From assembly GCA_043734325.1 (NCBI GenBank), contig JAYTFN010000082.1:1-36636 (forward strand): a stretch of 36,636 nucleotides of DNA, in the 5' to 3' direction. Positions 1,824 through 26,675 of the stretch are shown here, piece after piece (position 1 is the stretch's first letter; every line of letters begins with the position of its first letter). The notes under the pieces are model-generated. The model saw only the letters and a list, made by a program, of their open reading frames with translations, was not told the origin of the DNA and searched no databases. A program made the position numbers and the translations under genes. The stretch comes from Candidatus Adlerbacteria bacterium (GTDB taxonomy: Bacteria > Patescibacteriota > Minisyncoccia > Phycocordibacterales > SBAW01).

Positions 1824-3122
1824 CTACAAAAACATTTCTTTTCTACTTTTTCTTCGGTGATATTCTATTGCATACCGATGTGCCTCAGCGTTTGCTAAGA
1901 GAATATCCTTTTCGCGACCGACTATTGTTTCCTGACTACCTCTCAGTTCGCGAGGACGATGTCTTTCGTCTTTAACAACACCGACGACCGGGATACCTAT
2001 ACCGAGCTCCTTGAGTATATTTTCAGCTATGTTTATTTGGGCAGTTGCTCCATCCACAACAATCACCCGTGGAAGTGGCCACTCGGTGTGACCTAAACGA
2101 CGCGAAAGTATTTCCTTTAGAGAACCGGGATCGTCCCCAGCTTTGGCTGTTTTAATTTTAAACTTTCGATATTCCGCTTTTTGGATTATCCCCTCTTCTA
2201 CAACGGTCATTACCCCGACAGCCGCCGAGCCCGCAAGGTGGGCAACATCGTAGGCCTCTATACGGTTGTTCCCAATTGTAGAGGGTGATCGGTATTCATC
2301 TTTTATAAGCGACACATCTTGAATATGATTTAGCGCGAAAAGTTGACGCTTAAGTCTCGACGCTTCTTCGAACGCTTCGTCTTTTGCGGCGCATTTCATA
2401 TCTCGCTGGAGGCTTTTAATTAAAGTACTTTTCTTACCTTCAAATAGGAGCACTATGCGACGAATTATTTTTGCATAGTCAATCTTTGAAATTTCACCTG
2501 TACACACTCCTGGACACAGTCCAATATGCCGATTAAAGCACGGTTTATACCCATTACTTCGTACAAAGGACAGTCCTTTGTATTGCAAAGGACTGTCCTT
2601 TGTATTTTTTTTTTCTTGAGGAGGGGTGCACTTTTGGTCGCGGTATGGGAAAATTTTACGAATTATGCGCATCGCTTCCCTTAGCTGCATACCATGAGGG
2701 AAAGGTCCAAAGGTATGTGCGCGCGTTTCGACAGGTATATCAACATCAATGGTTTTACCTCTTGATACTAAAATTCTTGGAAAATCCTCTTTTGTAATCA
2801 CCACATAGTTAAAGCTTTTATCATCTCGAAGCGCAGTGTTGTAGTGCGGTTTATTAGTACGTATTAAGTTTGCTTCAAGTATGAGCGCTTCGAGCACAGA
2901 GTCAGTTTGCCGCCAATCAAGGTATTTTGCTTTATCTACCATCTGACCTATCAGTTGACTGCGTACTTGGGCAATATCCGCGACAAAGTAGGACCGCATC
3001 CGATCCGAAAGCGAAGTAGCCTTACCGATATAGAGCACTTTCTTTTTACTATCCAAAAAGAAATAAACCCCAGGAGTGTCCGGAATTTTCTTTACTCTTT
3101 TTTTAAATTCATCAAGTGTCAT
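1824..3122 (-). CDS. uvrC: Excinuclease ABC subunit C, short form without the C-terminal (HhH)2 domain
   Basis: It has a GIY-YIG motif (GVYFFLDSKKKVLYIGKATSLSDRMRSYF) and a UVR motif (EEASRLKRQLFALNHI). The C-terminal endonuclease domain is present (IEAYDVAHLAGSAAVG ... AEAHRYAIEYHRRKSRK). The protein ends 7 aa after the HRxK motif. Confidence 0.9.
   Translation of the reverse strand: MTLDEFKKRVKKIPDTPGVYFFLDSKKKVLYIGKATSLSDRMRSYFVADIAQVRSQLIGQMVDKAKYLDWRQTDSVLEALILEANLIRTNKPHYNTALRDDKSFNYVVITKEDFPRILVSRGKTIDVDIPVETRAHTFGPFPHGMQLREAMRIIRKIFPYRDQKCTPPQEKKNTKDSPLQYKGLSFVRSNGYKPCFNRHIGLCPGVCTGEISKIDYAKIIRRIVLLFEGKKSTLIKSLQRDMKCAAKDEAFEEASRLKRQLFALNHIQDVSLIKDEYRSPSTIGNNRIEAYDVAHLAGSAAVGVMTVVEEGIIQKAEYRKFKIKTAKAGDDPGSLKEILSRRLGHTEWPLPRVIVVDGATAQINIAENILKELGIGIPVVGVVKDERHRPRELRGSQETIVGREKDILLANAEAHRYAIEYHRRKSRKEMFL
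2562..2604. repeat. Palindromic element copy 1: perfect 19-bp stem with a 5-nt loop, inside uvrC
   Basis: The sequence is TACAAAGGACAGTCCTTTG TATTG CAAAGGACTGTCCTTTGTA. It is followed by T10 (2605-2614). It shares 37/44 identity with 16807-16850. Confidence 0.9.
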
Positions 3123-6162: not shown

Positions 6163-8292
6163 TTATTTTTTACGAGTGCGTGGCGGTTTCTTCTTTCCAT
6201 CATTTCCCAAGAGTGTAAAAAGCTCATCGCGAATAATTGCAGCAGTCTCAAAGTCGAGGTCCCGAACAGCATCTGCCATCTGCTGTCTTTTTTCAGCTAG
6301 AAACTTTTTAGGTTCTTTTTTATATAATTCAGAGTCAACAATTAAAAGTGAATTAACCGCCTTACTGTGTTCTGAGCGCATCTCTTCTGTAATATCTTTT
6401 ATACTTTTTTTAATGGTCGTGGGAGTGATACCGTGTTTTTTGTTGTGCGCTACTTGAATGATGCGACGTCGGTTCGTCTCGCCAATGGCTTTATCAAGGG
6501 AATTTGTCATACGATCGGCATAGAGAATAACTCGACCATCGACGTTTCGCGCAGCGCGGCCAATTGTTTGTATGAGTGATGTTTCCGATCGAAGAAATCC
6601 TTCCTTGTCAGCATCTAATATTGCAACAAGCTTCACTTCAGGAAGGTCGAGCCCTTCTCGGAGAAGATTCACCCCGACAAGCACATCATACGTTCCTTTT
6701 CTAAGTTCCGTGAGTGTCGTTATGCGGTCGAGTGTCTGCACATCACTGTGTAGGTACGCGGCTTTTATGTGTCGGTCTTTAAGGTATTCAGCTAAATCTT
6801 CTGCCATTTTTTTAGTGAGAGTCGTAACCAAAATTCGACCGCCGTCGGCAATAACTTTGTCCGCTTCTTCTAAAAAATCTTGCACCTGACCACGAGTCGT
6901 GGCACCAGAAGAAACACTTTCTGCAGCGTCCCCTGGCTGATCTGCAGCGGAAGAAAGCGTTTCTTCTAGTGTCTGCTTTTTCACGCTCCCTCCCGTCACC
7001 GGTCTCACAATAATTTCCGGGTCGACAAGACCGGTCGGACGAATAATTTGTTCGACTACATTCTTTCCACTTTTCTCGCGTTCATACGGCCCTGGTGTGG
7101 CCGAGGTGTATATGACTTGTCCAACTCTGTCTTCGAACTCATGAAATTGCAGCGGACGATTATCAATTGCGGACGGCAAGCGGAATCCGTAGTCTATTAA
7201 ATTTTCTTTGCGCGCCCGATCACCAGAGTACATACCGCCAATTTGCGGAATAGTAACGTGCGATTCGTCGATAATAGTTAAGAAGTCGGGCGTACCCTCT
7301 TTCGTATGCGGAAAATATTCAAGCAGAGAAAAGGGTGGCTGGCCCGGTTTACGTCCGTCGAAGTGGCGAGAATAATTTTCAATTCCGTTGCAGTAGCCGA
7401 CCTCTCGTATAAGAGCTAAGTCATGGTTAGTGCGTCGTTTAAGCCGCTCCGCTTCAAGTAACTTCCCCGCACGCTCAAACCGTGCAAGTTGGTTCTTAAG
7501 TTCAACTTTAATTTCTTCAATAGCTTCCAGTCTTTGAGACTCAGGAGTAACGTAATGCTTTGCAGGGAATAAAAATAGAGACTCCAAACGGTCAGTTTCG
7601 GCCCGTGTTATCGCATCTATAACGCGCACGCGCGCCACAATGTCGCCTTCAAACTCGACTCGGTACAACAACCGCTCACCTGTTGGCATTATCTCTATTG
7701 CGTTGCCCAGAGCGCGAAACTTTCCCGGTTCTAAGTCGGCAGGCGTACGTTCAAAGTAAACAGCGATAAGATCACGTATCAAATCTCCACGTAATTTTTT
7801 TGCACCTACTTTTAATTCAATATGTACCTTACGATACTCTTCGGGGCTTCCAAGCGCATATATGCATGACACAGACGCAACAATTATCACATCCTCACGC
7901 GTTAAAAGTGCTTGCGTTGAAGCGTGACGAAGCCGGTCAATTTCAACGTTTATTTGTGCCTCTTTTTCAATATACGTGTCGCTGTGCGGGATATACGCCT
8001 CCGGTTGATAGTAGTCGTAATACGAAACAAAATAGTGGACCGCATTATTCGGAAAAAATTCGCGATACTCCTGGGCCAATTGCGCCGCCAATGTCTTATT
8101 GTGCGCAATAACTAACGTAGGTTTTCCTACATGGGCTATGACGTTCGCACCGGTAAAAGTCTTACCTGAACCGGTGACACCAAGTAGTGTTTGATGCCGC
8201 TCCCTTCGCTCTATGCCTTGTATAAGCAGCTCAATAGCTTTAGGTTGGTCTCCAGCGGGAGAGTGTTCGGATTGTAAGGTAAGTTTTGCCAT
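6163..8292 (-). CDS. uvrB: Excinuclease ABC subunit B
   Basis: The 709-aa ORF has helicase motifs (GVTGSGKTFT, DESH, TSATPG, QTIGRAARN) and a C-terminal UVR domain (DLDFETAAIIRDELFTL). Confidence 0.95.
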   Translation of the reverse strand: MAKLTLQSEHSPAGDQPKAIELLIQGIERRERHQTLLGVTGSGKTFTGANVIAHVGKPTLVIAHNKTLAAQLAQEYREFFPNNAVHYFVSYYDYYQPEAYIPHSDTYIEKEAQINVEIDRLRHASTQALLTREDVIIVASVSCIYALGSPEEYRKVHIELKVGAKKLRGDLIRDLIAVYFERTPADLEPGKFRALGNAIEIMPTGERLLYRVEFEGDIVARVRVIDAITRAETDRLESLFLFPAKHYVTPESQRLEAIEEIKVELKNQLARFERAGKLLEAERLKRRTNHDLALIREVGYCNGIENYSRHFDGRKPGQPPFSLLEYFPHTKEGTPDFLTIIDESHVTIPQIGGMYSGDRARKENLIDYGFRLPSAIDNRPLQFHEFEDRVGQVIYTSATPGPYEREKSGKNVVEQIIRPTGLVDPEIIVRPVTGGSVKKQTLEETLSSAADQPGDAAESVSSGATTRGQVQDFLEEADKVIADGGRILVTTLTKKMAEDLAEYLKDRHIKAAYLHSDVQTLDRITTLTELRKGTYDVLVGVNLLREGLDLPEVKLVAILDADKEGFLRSETSLIQTIGRAARNVDGRVILYADRMTNSLDKAIGETNRRRIIQVAHNKKHGITPTTIKKSIKDITEEMRSEHSKAVNSLLIVDSELYKKEPKKFLAEKRQQMADAVRDLDFETAAIIRDELFTLLGNDGKKKPPRTRKK

Positions 8293-15451: not shown

Positions 15452-15479
15452 TTGACAAGTTTTCATAACCTGATATAAT
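15452..15479 (+). promoter_or_regulatory. Near-consensus sigma70 promoter
   Basis: TTGACA (15452-15457), a 16-nt spacer, then TATAAT (15474-15479). Confidence 0.65.
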
Positions 15480-15538: not shown

Positions 15539-15859
15539 ATGGTAGAAGCAATAAATGAGTTCCTGTTGCAGGATAGAGTTTCAAGTATTATTGTGGTACT
15601 GCTCATTTTTGCATTTTTATGGTGGGGGGCCGAATTATTATTTCGACTGGGAAAAGAATACCGAGTTTCCCTAATCCAGATCATTAGGATCTGGATTAGG
15701 GAATGGGTAGAGTGGGCATGCCTAGCCATGCTTGCAATTGGGCTAGTACTAGCCCTTTTAGCTGGCTGGGTATGGATCCTTCTAGCCACTTTTGCCGTCG
15801 CCTGGCATGCCACGGCAAAAGTAAGCTACAGGTTTAAGTTGCGCTTGATCAAGAATTAA
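15539..15859 (+). CDS. Possible small Trp-rich membrane protein (106 aa); coding status uncertain
   Basis: An AAGGGAG RBS lies about 9 nt upstream of the ATG, and 2-3 hydrophobic segments are predicted. However, the ORF contains three long perfect inverted repeats, and a co-extensive shadow ORF lies on the opposite strand. Confidence 0.45.
   Translation: MVEAINEFLLQDRVSSIIVVLLIFAFLWWGAELLFRLGKEYRVSLIQIIRIWIREWVEWACLAMLAIGLVLALLAGWVWILLATFAVAWHATAKVSYRFKLRLIKN
15667..15703. repeat. Perfect 16-bp inverted repeat with a 5-nt loop
   Basis: TTCCCTAATCCAGATC attag GATCTGGATTAGGGAA. Confidence 0.9.
15740..15755. repeat. Perfect 16-bp palindrome
   Basis: GGGCTAGTACTAGCCC, followed by TTTTAG. Confidence 0.85.
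15789..15821. repeat. Perfect 10-bp inverted repeat enclosing a GGCATGCC palindrome
   Basis: CTTTTGCCGT cgcctggcatgcc ACGGCAAAAG. Confidence 0.85.
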
Positions 15860-15909: not shown

Positions 15910-17106
15910 TTACTGCAAATACTTTTTTCCTTTTATTCTATCCGGTAAATAAGATTCGGTGTCATATTTTGTATAATTTTTTCCATAGCCGAGATTTTTC
16001 ATAAGTTTGGTCGGAGCATTCCGGATACTCATAGGGATAGGTAAGTTTCCCATCTGCTTCACATCCTTAAGCGCCTCGAAATACGCATCGTGTGAGTTTC
16101 TGCTTTTCTTGCATTCTGCCAAATACGCGACGCCGTGGGCCAAATTTATTTGACACTCGGGGTATCCTATAATTTCACACGCTCGAAATACTTCGTTCGC
16201 CACAACAAGCGCTGTCGGGACCGCAAGACCAATGTCTTCACTGGCGAAAATTACCATACGCCTAGCTATAAACAACGGGTCTTCGCCTGCGTCTACCATG
16301 CGAGCTAGGTAGTAGAGCGCCGCATCACCTTGGCTTGCACGCATTGATTTTATAAAGGCCGATATGGTGTTGTAGTGCTCTTCCCCTTTTTTATCGTACC
16401 GAAGGTGTTTGCTCTGCACCGTTTCCTTAAGCGTCTCAAGCGATATTTTCCCGTACAGCTTTTGCGTATTTTCTACCACTGTAATTGCTTGTCGAGCATC
16501 CCCTTGCGCCATTTCAATGAGCCAGTCACGAGCATCTTTGGGGATTTTTTTACTTACCTTTTCACCGAGCAGCTGTCGAGTCGCTCGCGCCAGTATATTC
16601 TCCATATCAGGAGGCGTTAGTTCATTAAGGACAAATACCCGACAACGCGACAAAAGTGCAGGAATTACCTCAAACGAAGGGTTCTCGGTCGTAGCGCCTA
16701 TAAGTGTTAACTCTCCCCGTTCTACAAAAGGTAGCAAGAAATCCTGCTGGGCTTTATTAAAGCGATGTATCTCATCTATAAATAGCACTTTAGGCTGCCC
16801 GGGAAATACAAAGGACTGTCCTTTGTACTGCCGAGAACTGTCCTTTGCGTTCATGCCCAAAATGCGTTTTATGTCGTCTTTGCCTGAGTCTACGGCTGAA
16901 AGTTCATAAAAATCGGCTTCTAAAGCGTTAGCGTAAATCCGCGCAAGGGTCGTTTTTCCGCTCCCAGGCGGCCCCCATAACAAAAAGGAAAAAAGATGTT
17001 TGCCTTCTGTGGCCTCGCGCAGAGGTTTTTTCTTCCCAACCAGATGTTCTTGTCCGACAAACTCATCCAGAGACTTCGGCCGAATTTTACTGGCAAGTGG
17101 TTCCAT
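15910..17106 (-). CDS. rarA: Replication-associated recombination protein A (AAA+ ATPase RarA/MgsA)
   Basis: It has Walker A GPPGSGKTT, Walker B LFIDEIHRFNKAQQD, GATTENPSFEV, and the MgsA C-terminal domains (DAALYYLARM, ASEDIGLA, RNAPTKLMK). Confidence 0.92.
   Translation of the reverse strand: MEPLASKIRPKSLDEFVGQEHLVGKKKPLREATEGKHLFSFLLWGPPGSGKTTLARIYANALEADFYELSAVDSGKDDIKRILGMNAKDSSRQYKGQSFVFPGQPKVLFIDEIHRFNKAQQDFLLPFVERGELTLIGATTENPSFEVIPALLSRCRVFVLNELTPPDMENILARATRQLLGEKVSKKIPKDARDWLIEMAQGDARQAITVVENTQKLYGKISLETLKETVQSKHLRYDKKGEEHYNTISAFIKSMRASQGDAALYYLARMVDAGEDPLFIARRMVIFASEDIGLAVPTALVVANEVFRACEIIGYPECQINLAHGVAYLAECKKSRNSHDAYFEALKDVKQMGNLPIPMSIRNAPTKLMKNLGYGKNYTKYDTESYLPDRIKGKKYLQ
16807..16850. 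repeat. Palindromic element copy 2, inside rarA
   Basis: TACAAAGGACTGTCCTTTGTACTGCCGAGAACTGTCCTTTGCGT shares 37/44 identity with 2562-2605. Its first 21 nt form a perfect palindrome. Confidence 0.85.
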
Positions 17107-18834: not shown

Positions 18835-20511
18835 CTATTTTAAAATTTTGTTTTGTTTTTTTACCGAAGGTAAGTCGAGGTGCAGTAAGGCGGCACTATA
18901 GGTCAAGCCAACTTTTTTGCCGGGATTAAAAATATTATGCGGGTCAAATATCTTTTTTACTTCCAAAAAGAGTGCATACATATCACGCCCAAACATTTTT
19001 TCAACGTAGGGAGTACGGACCAATCCATCATTGTGCTCGCCGGTAATTGACCCTTGATAGGAAATGACCAGGTCGTATACTTTGTGCGAAAGTTCATCAA
19101 TTAGCTTCACTATTTTTGGGTCTTTAGGGTCAATGAGAGGAATAATGTGAAAATTCCCATCACCAACATGACCCGCTATGGTGTATTGCAAATTGTAGTG
19201 AGACAAAATACCCTGCAGTTTAGGCAAAAATTCTGGCAAGGTCACTGGAGGCACAACAAAGTCATCAATAAAAGGGGCCGTACGTTTACCGCGTACTTTT
19301 TGACGCAAAAGGTTAAAGCTTTCACGTCGTATGACCCAATACTTTTTTGCGGCTGCTTCGCTTTTAGCTACCCGCACCCCGACATGAGGCTGCGTCTCTT
19401 TAATTTCAAGGGCTAACGCTTCAGCCTTATCGAGCGCTTCCTTTTGCGTACCGGCACGGAACTCGGCCAAAAGTACCAGTTTTGGTACGCCGCCAGTAAG
19501 CATCATCCACATCTCAGGCATAAAAGAAAAAGCAAGAGAAAAAATACCTGCTTTCATTTTAGTTGCAAACTCAGGGAAATATTTGACCCCAAGCTTAAAA
19601 GTATTGTCGTCATAGGATTCAAAACTATCCGGTTTACTCAATAGTACTTGAGGAACTATCGGCCCTAACTCAGCTAAATTATCTAAAAACAATACGGTCA
19701 TAGCGGCATACGGCTTTGGTTGTACCAGACCAATTTTTACTTCTGTAATTATACCCAGCGTCCCTTGTGCCCCGACCATAAGGCGGGCTAGGTTAAGCGA
19801 CTTTTCACCATCGCCGATATCCCAAAGAGCGTATCCTGAAGAGTTTTTTTCAACATGCGGCTTTGCCTTTTCTATCACCTTCTTATGAGTTTTTACTAAC
19901 TTTGACATACTGCGATATATATCACCTTCAAATCCTTCTTCTGAAAGTTTAAGCTGAAGCTCGTGACCTTTAAGGTTTTTCAAAAGATGCGGTTGACCAT
20001 CGGACAACACAACACCAAGCTCTTCGACGTACCGCGCAGTCTTACCGTATTTTAAATTTTTCTCACCTCCCGAGTTATTAGCGACCATGCCGCCAATAGT
20101 ATTTAGCTCTCTCGATGCAGTGTAACTCGGTAATTCTAAATTTTTCTTTTTAGTTTCTCGATCAAAATCCCGAAAATACATACCCGGTTGCACGACCGCA
20201 CTGTCGGAAGTAAGCTCAATAAGCTTATCAAAGTGTGCAGTCATGTCTAAAATAATAGAATCATTCAGCGGACCGCCAGACATGTCCGTACCCGCTGAGC
20301 GTGCCGTAATAGAGATATGTGTGTCGGGCTTTTCTTTTTTTAAATTAACAAACTGTACTACCGAAGCAACATCTTCGGTGTCTACGGGCGATACAACGAC
20401 CTTTGGTTTTACAACAAAAAGACTTGCATCGCGCGAAAACTTTTCAAGTGTCGCAGAAGATTCATCCACCTTGCCCTTTATAATTTTTTGTATTTCTTGT
20501 CCTAAAGTCAT
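18835..20511 (-). CDS. FAD-binding oxidoreductase (GlcD / D-lactate dehydrogenase-like, FAD_binding_4 + FAD-oxidase_C)
   Basis: The 558-aa ORF carries ARSAGTDMSGG, TIGGMVANNSGG, GTLGIITEV and GSITGEHNDGLVR motifs. Confidence 0.85.
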   Translation of the reverse strand: MTLGQEIQKIIKGKVDESSATLEKFSRDASLFVVKPKVVVSPVDTEDVASVVQFVNLKKEKPDTHISITARSAGTDMSGGPLNDSIILDMTAHFDKLIELTSDSAVVQPGMYFRDFDRETKKKNLELPSYTASRELNTIGGMVANNSGGEKNLKYGKTARYVEELGVVLSDGQPHLLKNLKGHELQLKLSEEGFEGDIYRSMSKLVKTHKKVIEKAKPHVEKNSSGYALWDIGDGEKSLNLARLMVGAQGTLGIITEVKIGLVQPKPYAAMTVLFLDNLAELGPIVPQVLLSKPDSFESYDDNTFKLGVKYFPEFATKMKAGIFSLAFSFMPEMWMMLTGGVPKLVLLAEFRAGTQKEALDKAEALALEIKETQPHVGVRVAKSEAAAKKYWVIRRESFNLLRQKVRGKRTAPFIDDFVVPPVTLPEFLPKLQGILSHYNLQYTIAGHVGDGNFHIIPLIDPKDPKIVKLIDELSHKVYDLVISYQGSITGEHNDGLVRTPYVEKMFGRDMYALFLEVKKIFDPHNIFNPGKKVGLTYSAALLHLDLPSVKKQNKILK

Positions 20512-25574: not shown

Positions 25575-25619
25575 ATTCCAAAAGAAATAGGACCGCTCTG
25601 TAAAATACAGAACGGTCCT
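25575..25619 (-). terminator. Rho-independent terminator of the PP2C-like gene
   Basis: The minus strand reads AGGACCGTTCTGTA-TTT-TACAGAGCGGTCCT followed by ATTTCTTTTGG. Confidence 0.75.
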
Positions 25620-25623
25620 TTGT

Positions 25624-26511
25624 TTACTCGGCAAACACGAGTTGTACCATTGTGGCTTCGGGCCACCCGTTGATATGAGGCGAGCCACCTACGCGCATCG
25701 TTTCACTATCCCGCCAATCAAGAAGTGCTTGAGTGCCTTCAGTTGAAAGCTCGAGGAGCTTCTGAGTAAGTTTTTCGCGTTGGTCACTCGCAGTCCACGA
25801 CAGGGGCAGCATGCCATCTGTCAGGAGAAGCACAAGCCGCGGATGGCTCGAATGAGCAATACGGAAATTCGTCCAACAATTCTGTACGGCATGGTCGCCA
25901 TTAAGTAGAGCAAACCCACCGCTACCGATCTGCTTGTTGATATATTTCAAACGCTTCTTTTCACAGAAAGTGAAATGCGCATCCCACGCATTTTCTTTAT
26001 TACCTCCTTGCTCCATGAGGTGACGCGCGAAGTTCTTTTCTTCGAGAAATTCAACTATTTGGGCGGCTGTATCAAAGCCACTTACAAAGCGGACACCCGT
26101 ATCGTCGATAACAAAGACTGCACAGTCGGATCCAAGAATGAACTCCAGACCATCCTTAGCCACCTTACAGAAGGCAAAGCCGGTACCACCGACATCGTCT
26201 AATCCAGGCATCTTGCCCATGTTCTTATGTTCAAGCCAAATACGCGTATTCATCTGCAACACAAGTTGCTCGAGATCTATTGCGGTATCCCGCGCCTCGG
26301 AACCTACACGGCAGACTATGGATGCAGCCACTTGCCCACCGGTAAGGCCTTTCGAGTAGCGAAGTGGTGGATGTTTCGGGCTGTAGGCAGCAGAGACACC
26401 GTCTACAACACCAAAAAACCCTGCACAAATGTTCAAAAAATGTCCGTCTTCTATATGCGCCGTATGGTCAGTTGGATATCGGTAGAAGGCAGTCGCTGAA
26501 AGAAGATGCAT
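25624..26511 (-). CDS. PP2C-like protein phosphatase domain protein
   Basis: The ORF is trimmed to the ATG at 26511, which is preceded by a GAGGAAAG RBS. PP2C-like blocks FGVVDGVS, GGTGFAF and LLLTDGM are present. The assignment is tentative. Confidence 0.55.
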   Translation of the reverse strand: MHLLSATAFYRYPTDHTAHIEDGHFLNICAGFFGVVDGVSAAYSPKHPPLRYSKGLTGGQVAASIVCRVGSEARDTAIDLEQLVLQMNTRIWLEHKNMGKMPGLDDVGGTGFAFCKVAKDGLEFILGSDCAVFVIDDTGVRFVSGFDTAAQIVEFLEEKNFARHLMEQGGNKENAWDAHFTFCEKKRLKYINKQIGSGGFALLNGDHAVQNCWTNFRIAHSSHPRLVLLLTDGMLPLSWTASDQREKLTQKLLELSTEGTQALLDWRDSETMRVGGSPHINGWPEATMVQLVFAE

Positions 26512-26675
26512 TGCTTTCCTCACTAGATTTGTGGATTTACGTCTAGTATAAATTAGATACTAATTTATTTATTTGTCAAATGTTACGTAATGGTTCAATA
26601 GCTTGGACGCACTTATACAGCTACCATCAAGTACGTTGCTTACACACAAAATCCTCACGCGCACAACGTGCAACG

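Follow-up and report, generated by a model that had tools for sequence, protein, structure and literature searches.

The uvrC gene of Candidatus Adlerbacteria bacterium (GenBank assembly GCA_043734325.1, contig JAYTFN010000082.1, positions 1 to 36,636; this whole stretch of 36,636 nucleotides is referred to below as the window) contains a perfect hairpin within its coding sequence. This raises the question of what the hairpin is, how it entered an essential repair gene and how the gene accommodates it. The results described here suggested that it is probably a doublet of repetitive extragenic palindromic (REP) units similar to a REPIN (REP doublet forming a hairpin), which would be mobilised in trans by an enzyme of the RAYT (REP-associated tyrosine transposase) type, and which resembles a Rickettsia palindromic element (RPE) in its behaviour.

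Structure and insertion of the hairpin element

Comparison of the two arms of the hairpin (2562-2580 and 2586-2604, 19 nt each, with a 5-nt gap) showed 100% complementarity, which bore out the perfect 19-bp stem and 5-nt loop described in the initial annotation of this DNA. As RNA, the element was calculated to fold with -33.6 kcal/mol (z = -9.2), and 0 of 200 shuffled sequences equalled its fold. Five hairpins with stems of at least 13 were observed in the window, compared with 0.2 in codon-block shuffles, and the uvrC element was the sole perfect one within a long open reading frame (ORF). Inspection of the arms revealed that they are themselves 17-nt palindromes of the form CAAAGG-N5-CCTTTG, two of which stand in tandem with a period of 22 nt. 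The central 5 bases are ACAGT in unit 1 and ACTGT, the inverted complement, in unit 2, the middle base of unit 2 being the complement of that of unit 1. The motif CAAAGGACNGTCCTTTG had 5 matches in the 36.6-kb window at up to 3 mismatches, where 0.13 were expected, and the motif search yielded 3 intact 17-nt units and 1 decayed unit. A third site at 25606 (3 mismatches) was set aside as an unrelated hairpin, placed as the terminator of ORF 25624-26523(-).

The element lies wholly inside ORF 1824-3122(-), where it is in frame, encodes T174-V187 (TKDSPLQYKGLSFV) and stands between the invariant residues C165 and C195; Pfam and the alignment thus agreed with its earlier placement after the GIY-YIG domain, between Cys residues. 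The net insertion amounts to 42 nt, or 14 aa. When 120 UvrC orthologues were aligned, the invariant Cys-to-Cys distance was usually 17 residues (9 in some) versus 31 in the window protein, and the loop at the insert site ranged from 9 to 45 residues. The nearest orthologues, P0002 and P0003, are 80% identical to the window protein outside the loop and were found to be insert-free, so the presence/absence polymorphism anticipated earlier is real, and the peptide is not ancestral sequence. The DNA of P0003 (contig L149) was used for the empty-site comparison. The UvrC of contig L024, which is 86% identical to the insert-free P0002 and 78% to the window protein, carries a doublet with another centre (GGCTTGGCC). 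P0011 has an intact doublet with the centre GGTCGCACC, and P0026, which is 85% identical to P0011, has a loop of equal length in which the sequence has decayed. Because the identical 432-aa UvrC was present on 5 independently assembled contigs, among them one from ENA and one that Logan had assembled from a different run, an assembly artefact was excluded. By the names given to its homologues, the organism falls within the Patescibacteria, in the Paceibacteria and close to Adlerbacteria.

In the AlphaFold2 model of UvrC (mean predicted local distance difference test score, pLDDT, of 86), residues 177-188 had pLDDT values below 50 and no secondary structure, and the insert was the sole unstructured low-confidence stretch in the N-terminal half. 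The mapping onto a structure model proposed at the outset thus places the insert in what is predicted to be a tolerant loop.

A second, partly decayed copy is located in rarA. Its reading frame is that of the uvrC copy, which gives the peptide KDSSRQYKGQSFV, and it stands in the loop ahead of the Walker B strand (…DIKRILG[insert]KVLFIDE…). The identity of 37 in 44 positions and the shared frame that had been reported for this copy were both reproduced, while the reported "same orientation" proved uninformative for a palindrome. The nearest RarA orthologues, P0122 (86%) and P0123 (85%), are 10 aa shorter at this site, and other orthologues carry peptides of the same family there (AKVRPSHNKGQTFA, TKDGPLQNKGPSLG and TKGTPLSRNKGVPFA). 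Since neither element is present in the closest orthologues of UvrC and RarA (80-86% identical), both are insertions. The uvrC and rarA copies have the common centre GGAC(A/T)GTCC, and the uvrC copies of other genomes have different centres. It was also observed that the native RarA loop in contig L148 (10001-11167) reads KKGQIxF, with the DNA AAA AAA GAC CAG ATA CAG TTT, and that both this peptide and its DNA resemble the unit-2 peptide YKGQSFVF and the element's DNA (compared with window 16800-16870). This likeness may be accidental, may stem from microhomology where the insertion took place, or may result from selection for a loop of that kind.

The dispersed family and its reading frames

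A collection of 185,579 species, each represented by a single genome, was scanned for two CAAAGG-N5-CCTTTG units with a 5-nt spacer. The scan returned 23 loci, 11 of them in metagenome-assembled genomes (MAGs) of Patescibacteria and 12 as tandem arrays in chicken-gut Bacteroides MAGs. The Patescibacteria loci were labelled Saccharibacteria (four), with Adlerbacteria, Parcubacteria and Patescibacteria group as the other labels. Clear placement within long ORFs was obtained for 10 of these 11 copies, in UvrC (three besides that of the window), MetRS (three), Rpe, transketolase and TGT; the eleventh (L026) was ambiguous, near the 5' side of frr. Read in a long open frame, the copies of all 11 Patescibacteria loci use one common frame.

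A scan of metagenomes with spacers of 1-9 nt gave at least 120 loci, and 113 non-redundant doublets were available among the matches listed, to which the counts in this section refer. Unit 2 repeated unit 1 as its inverted complement in 92 of the 113 doublets, 61 of which had a centre that was not self-complementary. The 113 doublets contained at least 37 centre variants. A dominant ORF of at least 600 nt surrounded 42 of them, and the hosts were core genes, including tRNA synthetases, UvrA/B/C/D, LigA, TopA, MurD and others (Table 1). The possibility that no further copies exist and that the similarity between uvrC and rarA is artefactual was thereby removed, as the proposed search of related genomes recovered many copies in many genes and genomes.

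The distribution of the copies showed several regularities. On contig L116, LeuRS and MnmA carry identical 39-nt copies. Across orthologues, the same loop often holds doublets with different spacers or centres, and decayed copies are common (window rarA, P0026, P0074 and P0081). Single units were seen twice on contig L003, at 10648 and 20478, with a common centre and opposite orientations (TTACAAAGGTCAGTCCTTTGTAA and its reverse complement, with the middle ACTGA), one in uvrC and the other intergenic after atpC; these look like singlets left over from doublets. Many copies are bounded by TA…TA and others by CC…GG, CG…CG or AA…TT; without a consensus, such flanking dinucleotides would simply extend the palindrome. 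In addition, contig L004, from MAG ELA268, was seen to carry between atpD and atpC (20180-20225) a related doublet whose ends are CTAAGG and whose period is 28 nt (CCTAAGGTTAAACCTTAGG …); this MAG has a CAAAGG doublet in uvrC too.

Three other interpretations of the family were tried and dropped. A scan of viral contigs for the doublet gave 0 matches, and there was no sign of a phage origin. A DNA-uptake sequence, suggested by the role of uvrC and rarA in genome maintenance, did not agree with the low density, the lineage-specific centres and the fact that the copies are net insertions rather than motifs made by point mutation. The chicken-gut Bacteroides matches were treated as separate from the family, being tandem 22-nt arrays with surrounding stop codons and no RAYT match. 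These arrays consist of units of the type CAAAGGT(N)ACCTTTG, two to three or more per array, with several arrays per genome (L005-L009, L011, L015, L016, L018, L019 and L021-L023; no RAYT match in the fetched DNA), and look like a separate repeat class with a common core and period.

One unit can be read in three ways, as QRxxL(C/W), KxxPL or KGxxF. It was found that 35 of the 42 in-ORF doublets avoid the CAA-AGG frame in both units, whatever the spacer, where 15 were expected, and 0 of 2,000,000 simulations reached 35. The same 35 of 42 use the frames giving K-x-x-P-L and K-G-x-x-F. Because such a preference would be meaningless unless the peptide were produced, it argues that the in-ORF doublets are translated, and the frame shared by the uvrC and rarA copies follows from this family-wide preference. 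The LeuRS genes of contigs L080 (1912-3291) and L116 (8680-11022) hold doublets at the same site with the same centre and spacers of 6 nt and 5 nt, respectively; unit 2 is read KQRFNLC in one contig and NKGLTFV in the other, and this protein tolerates either frame.

Table 1. Positions of the element, its units and its host genes in the window, and host genes of in-ORF doublets in the wider family
Feature	Position	Strand	Copies	Basis
uvrC host gene, short Patescibacteria (Paceibacteria-type), 432 aa	1824..3122	-		Pfam GIY-YIG, UVR, UvrC_RNaseH_dom
REPIN-like intact palindromic doublet, TACAAAGGACAGTCCTTTG-TATTG-CAAAGGACTGTCCTTTGTA	2562..2604	none		arm complementarity and RNA fold
Unit 1, 17-nt 8-1-8 palindrome, CAAAGGAC-A-GTCCTTTG	2564..2580	none		exact motif match
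Unit 2, CAAAGGAC-T-GTCCTTTG	2586..2602	none		exact motif match
T10 run (A-run coding E-K-K-N on the gene strand), host sequence outside the element	2605..2614	+		L149 empty-site comparison
rarA/mgsA host gene, 398 aa	15910..17106	-		Pfam AAA, AAA_assoc_2, MgsA_C
Partly decayed second doublet copy, 37/44 identical, translates AKDSSRQYKGQSFV	16807..16850	none		alignment
Intact unit of rarA copy, CAAAGGACTGTCCTTTG	16809..16825	none		exact motif match
Decayed unit of rarA copy, CCGAGAACTGTCCTTTG, 3 mismatches	16831..16847	none		motif search
Host gene PheT			at least 4	
Host genes TopA, UvrC, MurD			at least 3 each	
Host genes LeuRS, LigA, UvrA, CysRS, class-V aminotransferase, Def			at least 2 each	
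Host genes MetRS, UvrB, UvrD, HolB, Tmk, RNase R, TsaD, KsgA, MnmA, PilB, TGT, Rpe			at least 1 each	

The RAYT-type transposase and the rival explanations

On contigs L055 and L062, two doublets were found to bracket an ORF of 220 aa. Its product matched Pfam Y1_Tnp (PF01797) with 37.8 bits (cut-off 23), and its best NCBIfam match was REP_Tyr_transpos with 41.6 bits, which is below the cut-off of 80 for that family; the name given to the ~220-aa protein by the Joint Genome Institute (JGI) is RayT. Among the matches listed from a tblastn search of 120 loci, all of which had been fetched by DNA pattern only, a Y1_Tnp gene was present in 19, compared with ~0.7 expected for a single-copy gene, and in 14 of the 19 a CAAAGG doublet lay within ~50 nt of it. 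In the usual layout, the start had a doublet upstream of it, and the stop was followed by either a unit or a doublet. Transposases more distant within the family were flanked by other palindromes of 17-21 nt with the same 8-1-8 build, and homologues fetched by protein similarity alone (L153-L155) were flanked by palindromes of 17-27 nt as well.

The HxH motif (MPNHFHLL) and the Tyr of Y-IHLNP were invariant in the transposase family. When the AlphaFold2 model of one family member (pLDDT 87.7) was searched with Foldseek, the best match was 4ER8, the E. coli RAYT bound to a REP hairpin (E = 1.9e-5, template modelling score 0.68), and IS200/IS605 insertion sequence (IS) transposases came second with E of about 3e-3. 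A sequence search of solved structures gave weak matches to ISDra2 only, the profile matching ISDra2 TnpA in the region of the HUH motif with E = 0.003. At least 5 centre variants occur both beside RAYT genes and inside ORFs, and the RAYT-flank doublet of L028 and the uvrC doublet of L075, which belong to one metagenome according to the contig names, are identical at 36 of 37 positions. The named homologues of the transposase are all from Patescibacteria, and the genes next to the RAYT on contigs L042 and L057 encode proteins that share at least 90% identity with those of Azambacteria, Giovannonibacteria and Yonathbacteria.

Two observations concern individual RAYT loci. Between murC and murD, L055 contains two tandem RAYT-like paralogues (749-2458, 86% identical) with CAAAGG units between and flanking them, and the related contig L062 has a single RAYT copy in the same place. 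The 689-aa LigA beside the RAYT gene on L042 (5489-7555) clusters with two fragments of 205 and 225 aa from Candidatus Azambacteria GW2011_GWB1_42_17, in which the LigA gene may be split or mis-called.

These results are consistent with the following course of events. Two inverted 17-nt palindromes of 8-1-8 build form one long hairpin, which would be a non-autonomous element of the REP/REPIN type, and the gene for the ~220-aa HUH/Y1 transposase of RAYT type, flanked by the same units in related Patescibacteria, would encode the likely mobiliser. Enzymes of the RAYT class bind and cut REP hairpins in single-stranded DNA, and the enzyme found here most likely copies the doublets to new sites. 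As the genomes are very compact, many insertions would land inside genes. Copies would survive only where the net insertion is in frame, falls in a surface loop that tolerates it and has a reading frame giving a harmless peptide (K-x-x-P-L or K-G-x-x-F). The uvrC and rarA copies would be such survivors, read as extra loops with no demonstrated benefit, presumably neutral, and later decaying by point mutation; the rarA copy is half decayed already.

Several findings weigh against a REPIN-like doublet mobilised by a RAYT-type enzyme. By tblastn, no RAYT gene was present in the 36.6-kb window or in L001-L004; because the window has none, we infer rather than observe that such an enzyme moved the uvrC and rarA copies. 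On L116, L041 and L135, which have an in-ORF CAAAGG doublet as well as a RAYT gene, that gene is flanked by a different palindrome. Spacers are 1-3 nt in RAYT-flanking doublets and mostly 3-8 nt in in-ORF doublets. The copy number looks low, with 2 doublets in the 36.6 kb of the window and, in the species collection, a single intact doublet of spacer 5 for each Patescibacteria genome, and classical REPINs reach tens to hundreds of copies per genome. Classical REPs are extragenic, and both window copies lie inside ORFs. Comparison of filled and empty sites yielded no target motif and no target-site duplication, only mild A-richness. Finally, the occupancy of one loop in many orthologues could reflect old vertical inheritance with upkeep of the palindrome rather than repeated transposition.

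[quoted passage not shown] The window without a RAYT gene and the other cognate palindromes of the RAYT genes on L116, L041 and L135 point in this direction, as do the TA…TA bounds of many copies and the patchy distribution at one site among close relatives. Nevertheless, TA…TA could equally be an extension of the palindrome, other copies having CC…GG, CG…CG or AA…TT at their ends, no DDE transposase was seen beside any copy, and the enrichment of RAYT genes directly next to doublets is extreme. Mobility without RAYT was thus regarded as unlikely.

It was also considered whether the hairpin is a cis-element selected by the host, such as an antisense terminator protecting uvrC, a regulatory hairpin in the mRNA or a binding site for a dimeric protein. 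The hairpin had been read earlier, together with the T10 run that follows it, as having the form of a terminator antisense to uvrC. As regards shape on the + strand this held, T10 being directly 3' of the hairpin and the pair being the best terminator-like site in 18 kb by a terminator scan. However, T10 is not part of the element, but host sequence, because the empty site of the L149 orthologue has the A-run as well, reading CAA AAA AAA AGT with the Lys codons AAA AAA. Also against a terminator, the long ORFs around the element (ddl-like 789-1787, uvrC/A/B) are all on the - strand. An A/T run in the terminator position accompanied only 6 of the 113 doublets listed, in coding copies, and few of the other copies. 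The terminator was therefore rejected as a family trait. The perfect palindrome in the uvrC copy, the compensated centre changes that preserve the palindrome between genomes and the presence of DNA-repair genes among the hosts would suit a selected element; but the closest relatives manage without the insert, decayed copies (rarA, P0026, P0074, P0081) are common, the host genes belong to unrelated pathways, and an Rfam scan of the window returned tRNA only, with no match for the element. A host-selected function is, on this evidence, quite improbable. As a separate point, the A10 homopolymer on the coding strand of uvrC (2605-2614), directly before the element, is slippage-prone and stands in an essential repair gene; the A-run at the corresponding place of the L149 orthologue is shorter.

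Slightly less probable still is a local origin without any mobile element, by template switching (an accepted route to perfect inverted repeats, PMC6649704) or snap-back replication errors in a tolerant loop with upkeep by quasi-palindrome correction, which is suggested by the resemblance of the native RarA loop KKGQIxF to YKGQSFVF and by unrelated palindromes in the same UvrC and RarA loops elsewhere (L151, L152) and in the uvrB gene of the window, but is opposed by the occurrence of one 17-nt unit in unlinked genes of a single genome, by the conservation of the CAAAGG/CCTTTG ends in dozens of unrelated genes from both Saccharibacteria and Paceibacteria, and by the transposase genes flanked by the same units.

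A REPIN-like doublet moved by a RAYT-type enzyme was hence retained as the probable explanation of the uvrC and rarA copies. The broader proposal, that RAYT-type transposases routinely seed REP doublets of 35-45 nt into the core genes of Patescibacteria, is advanced tentatively, with confidence a little short of even.

Significance and comparison with known systems

Two further palindromes in the window deserve mention. The uvrB ORF (6163-8292(-)) contains a third in-frame palindrome at 6903-6971, of unrelated sequence, with 25-nt arms that are 84% complementary. It lies inside the hypervariable UvrB insert (RPVTG[…]GQVQDFL), whose length and sequence are different in each of the relatives examined. 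At 15667-15703 another palindrome, perfect, with arms of 16 nt around a loop of 5 nt (TTCCCTAATCCAGATC…), encodes VSLIQIIRIWIRE. Its host is a 106-aa putative membrane ORF (15539-15859), before which there is a perfect promoter match, TTGACA-16-TATAAT (15452-15479). This may be a coding palindrome of another family.

The members of the CAAAGG family are REP doublets tied to a RAYT-like gene, and they also turn up, apparently read through, in no fewer than 25 different core genes of ultra-small bacteria. If RAYT-type transposases do seed such doublets routinely, REPIN insertion would be a major unrecognised source of lineage-specific protein loops in the candidate phyla radiation (CPR), as in UvrA/B/C, RarA, tRNA synthetases, LigA and TopA, and some of the insertions that have been puzzling in CPR proteins would be explained. 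There would also be, for the first time, a model linked to an enzyme for coding palindromes of the RPE type, for which we know of no mobilising enzyme. An enzyme and its 17-nt substrate would be at hand for biochemistry, and the copies would constitute a natural experiment on how proteins absorb random loops of 12-15 residues, including which reading frames are tolerated. On the practical side, the repeats break assemblies, most RAYT contigs being 1-10 kb, and can mislead annotation as well as alignment-based phylogenies of CPR marker genes.

No description of such elements for Patescibacteria/CPR was found in the searchable full-text literature, in line with the initial annotation, whose author knew of none for this kind of genome. 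Three known systems share features with the family. IS200/IS605 elements and their palindrome-associated derivatives likewise have an HUH/Y1 enzyme, which recognises hairpins in the DNA at the ends of the element, but the protein found here, of ~220 aa, has a structure closer to that of RAYT than to those of the IS200/IS608/ISDra2 transposases, and the dispersed copies are gene-less. The coding palindromes of Nematomorpha mitochondria (PMC6649704) are also perfect inverted repeats in coding sequence, with both arms translated and with gains and losses between species; unlike the present element, they are up to 284 bp long, encode conserved protein residues, are not dispersed and lack a transposase. 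Palindromic amphipathic repeat coding elements (PARCELs, PMC2996958) are palindromic DNA translated within ORFs too, but they are longer and stand in tandem in genes for surface proteins, and do not occur singly in core enzymes.

Hairpins within coding sequence are regarded as rare, with RPEs as the textbook case (PMC6649704). The family resembles RPEs (PMC10969869; PMC6649704) in that in-frame palindromic repeats occur in unrelated housekeeping genes of a reduced genome in a manner compatible with function, that there are several sequence families, and that palindromic identity is lost over time. It is set apart from them by size and host: RPEs are about 100-150 bp (PMC10969869) and confined to Rickettsia, an alphaproteobacterium, whereas the present element has 43 nt, is found in Patescibacteria and is linked to a RAYT-type gene.

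The similarity to the REP/REPIN-RAYT system of E. coli and Pseudomonas fluorescens (PMC3116915, 4ER8) goes further. Both consist of short palindromic units in inverted pairs, each pair making up one hairpin, a single HUH/Y1 gene has such units on either side, the fold of its product is nearest to 4ER8, and singlets resemble decayed doublets. The differences are that the units here have 17 nt and the doublet 35-43 nt, compared with REP doublet spacings of 71 and 110 bp in P. fluorescens (PMC3116915); that REPINs are defined as extragenic, whereas ~40% of the sampled copies among the matches listed lie inside protein-coding genes and are presumably read through; and that the apparent copy number is low, the host belongs to the Patescibacteria and the protein stays below the NCBIfam RAYT cut-off (41.6 versus 80 bits). 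The earlier description of the element as an RPE-like in-frame insertion in a housekeeping gene with a second copy elsewhere thus remains apt for its behaviour, while in size and host it departs from RPEs, and its closest mechanistic relatives are the REP/REPIN elements with their RAYT-type transposases.

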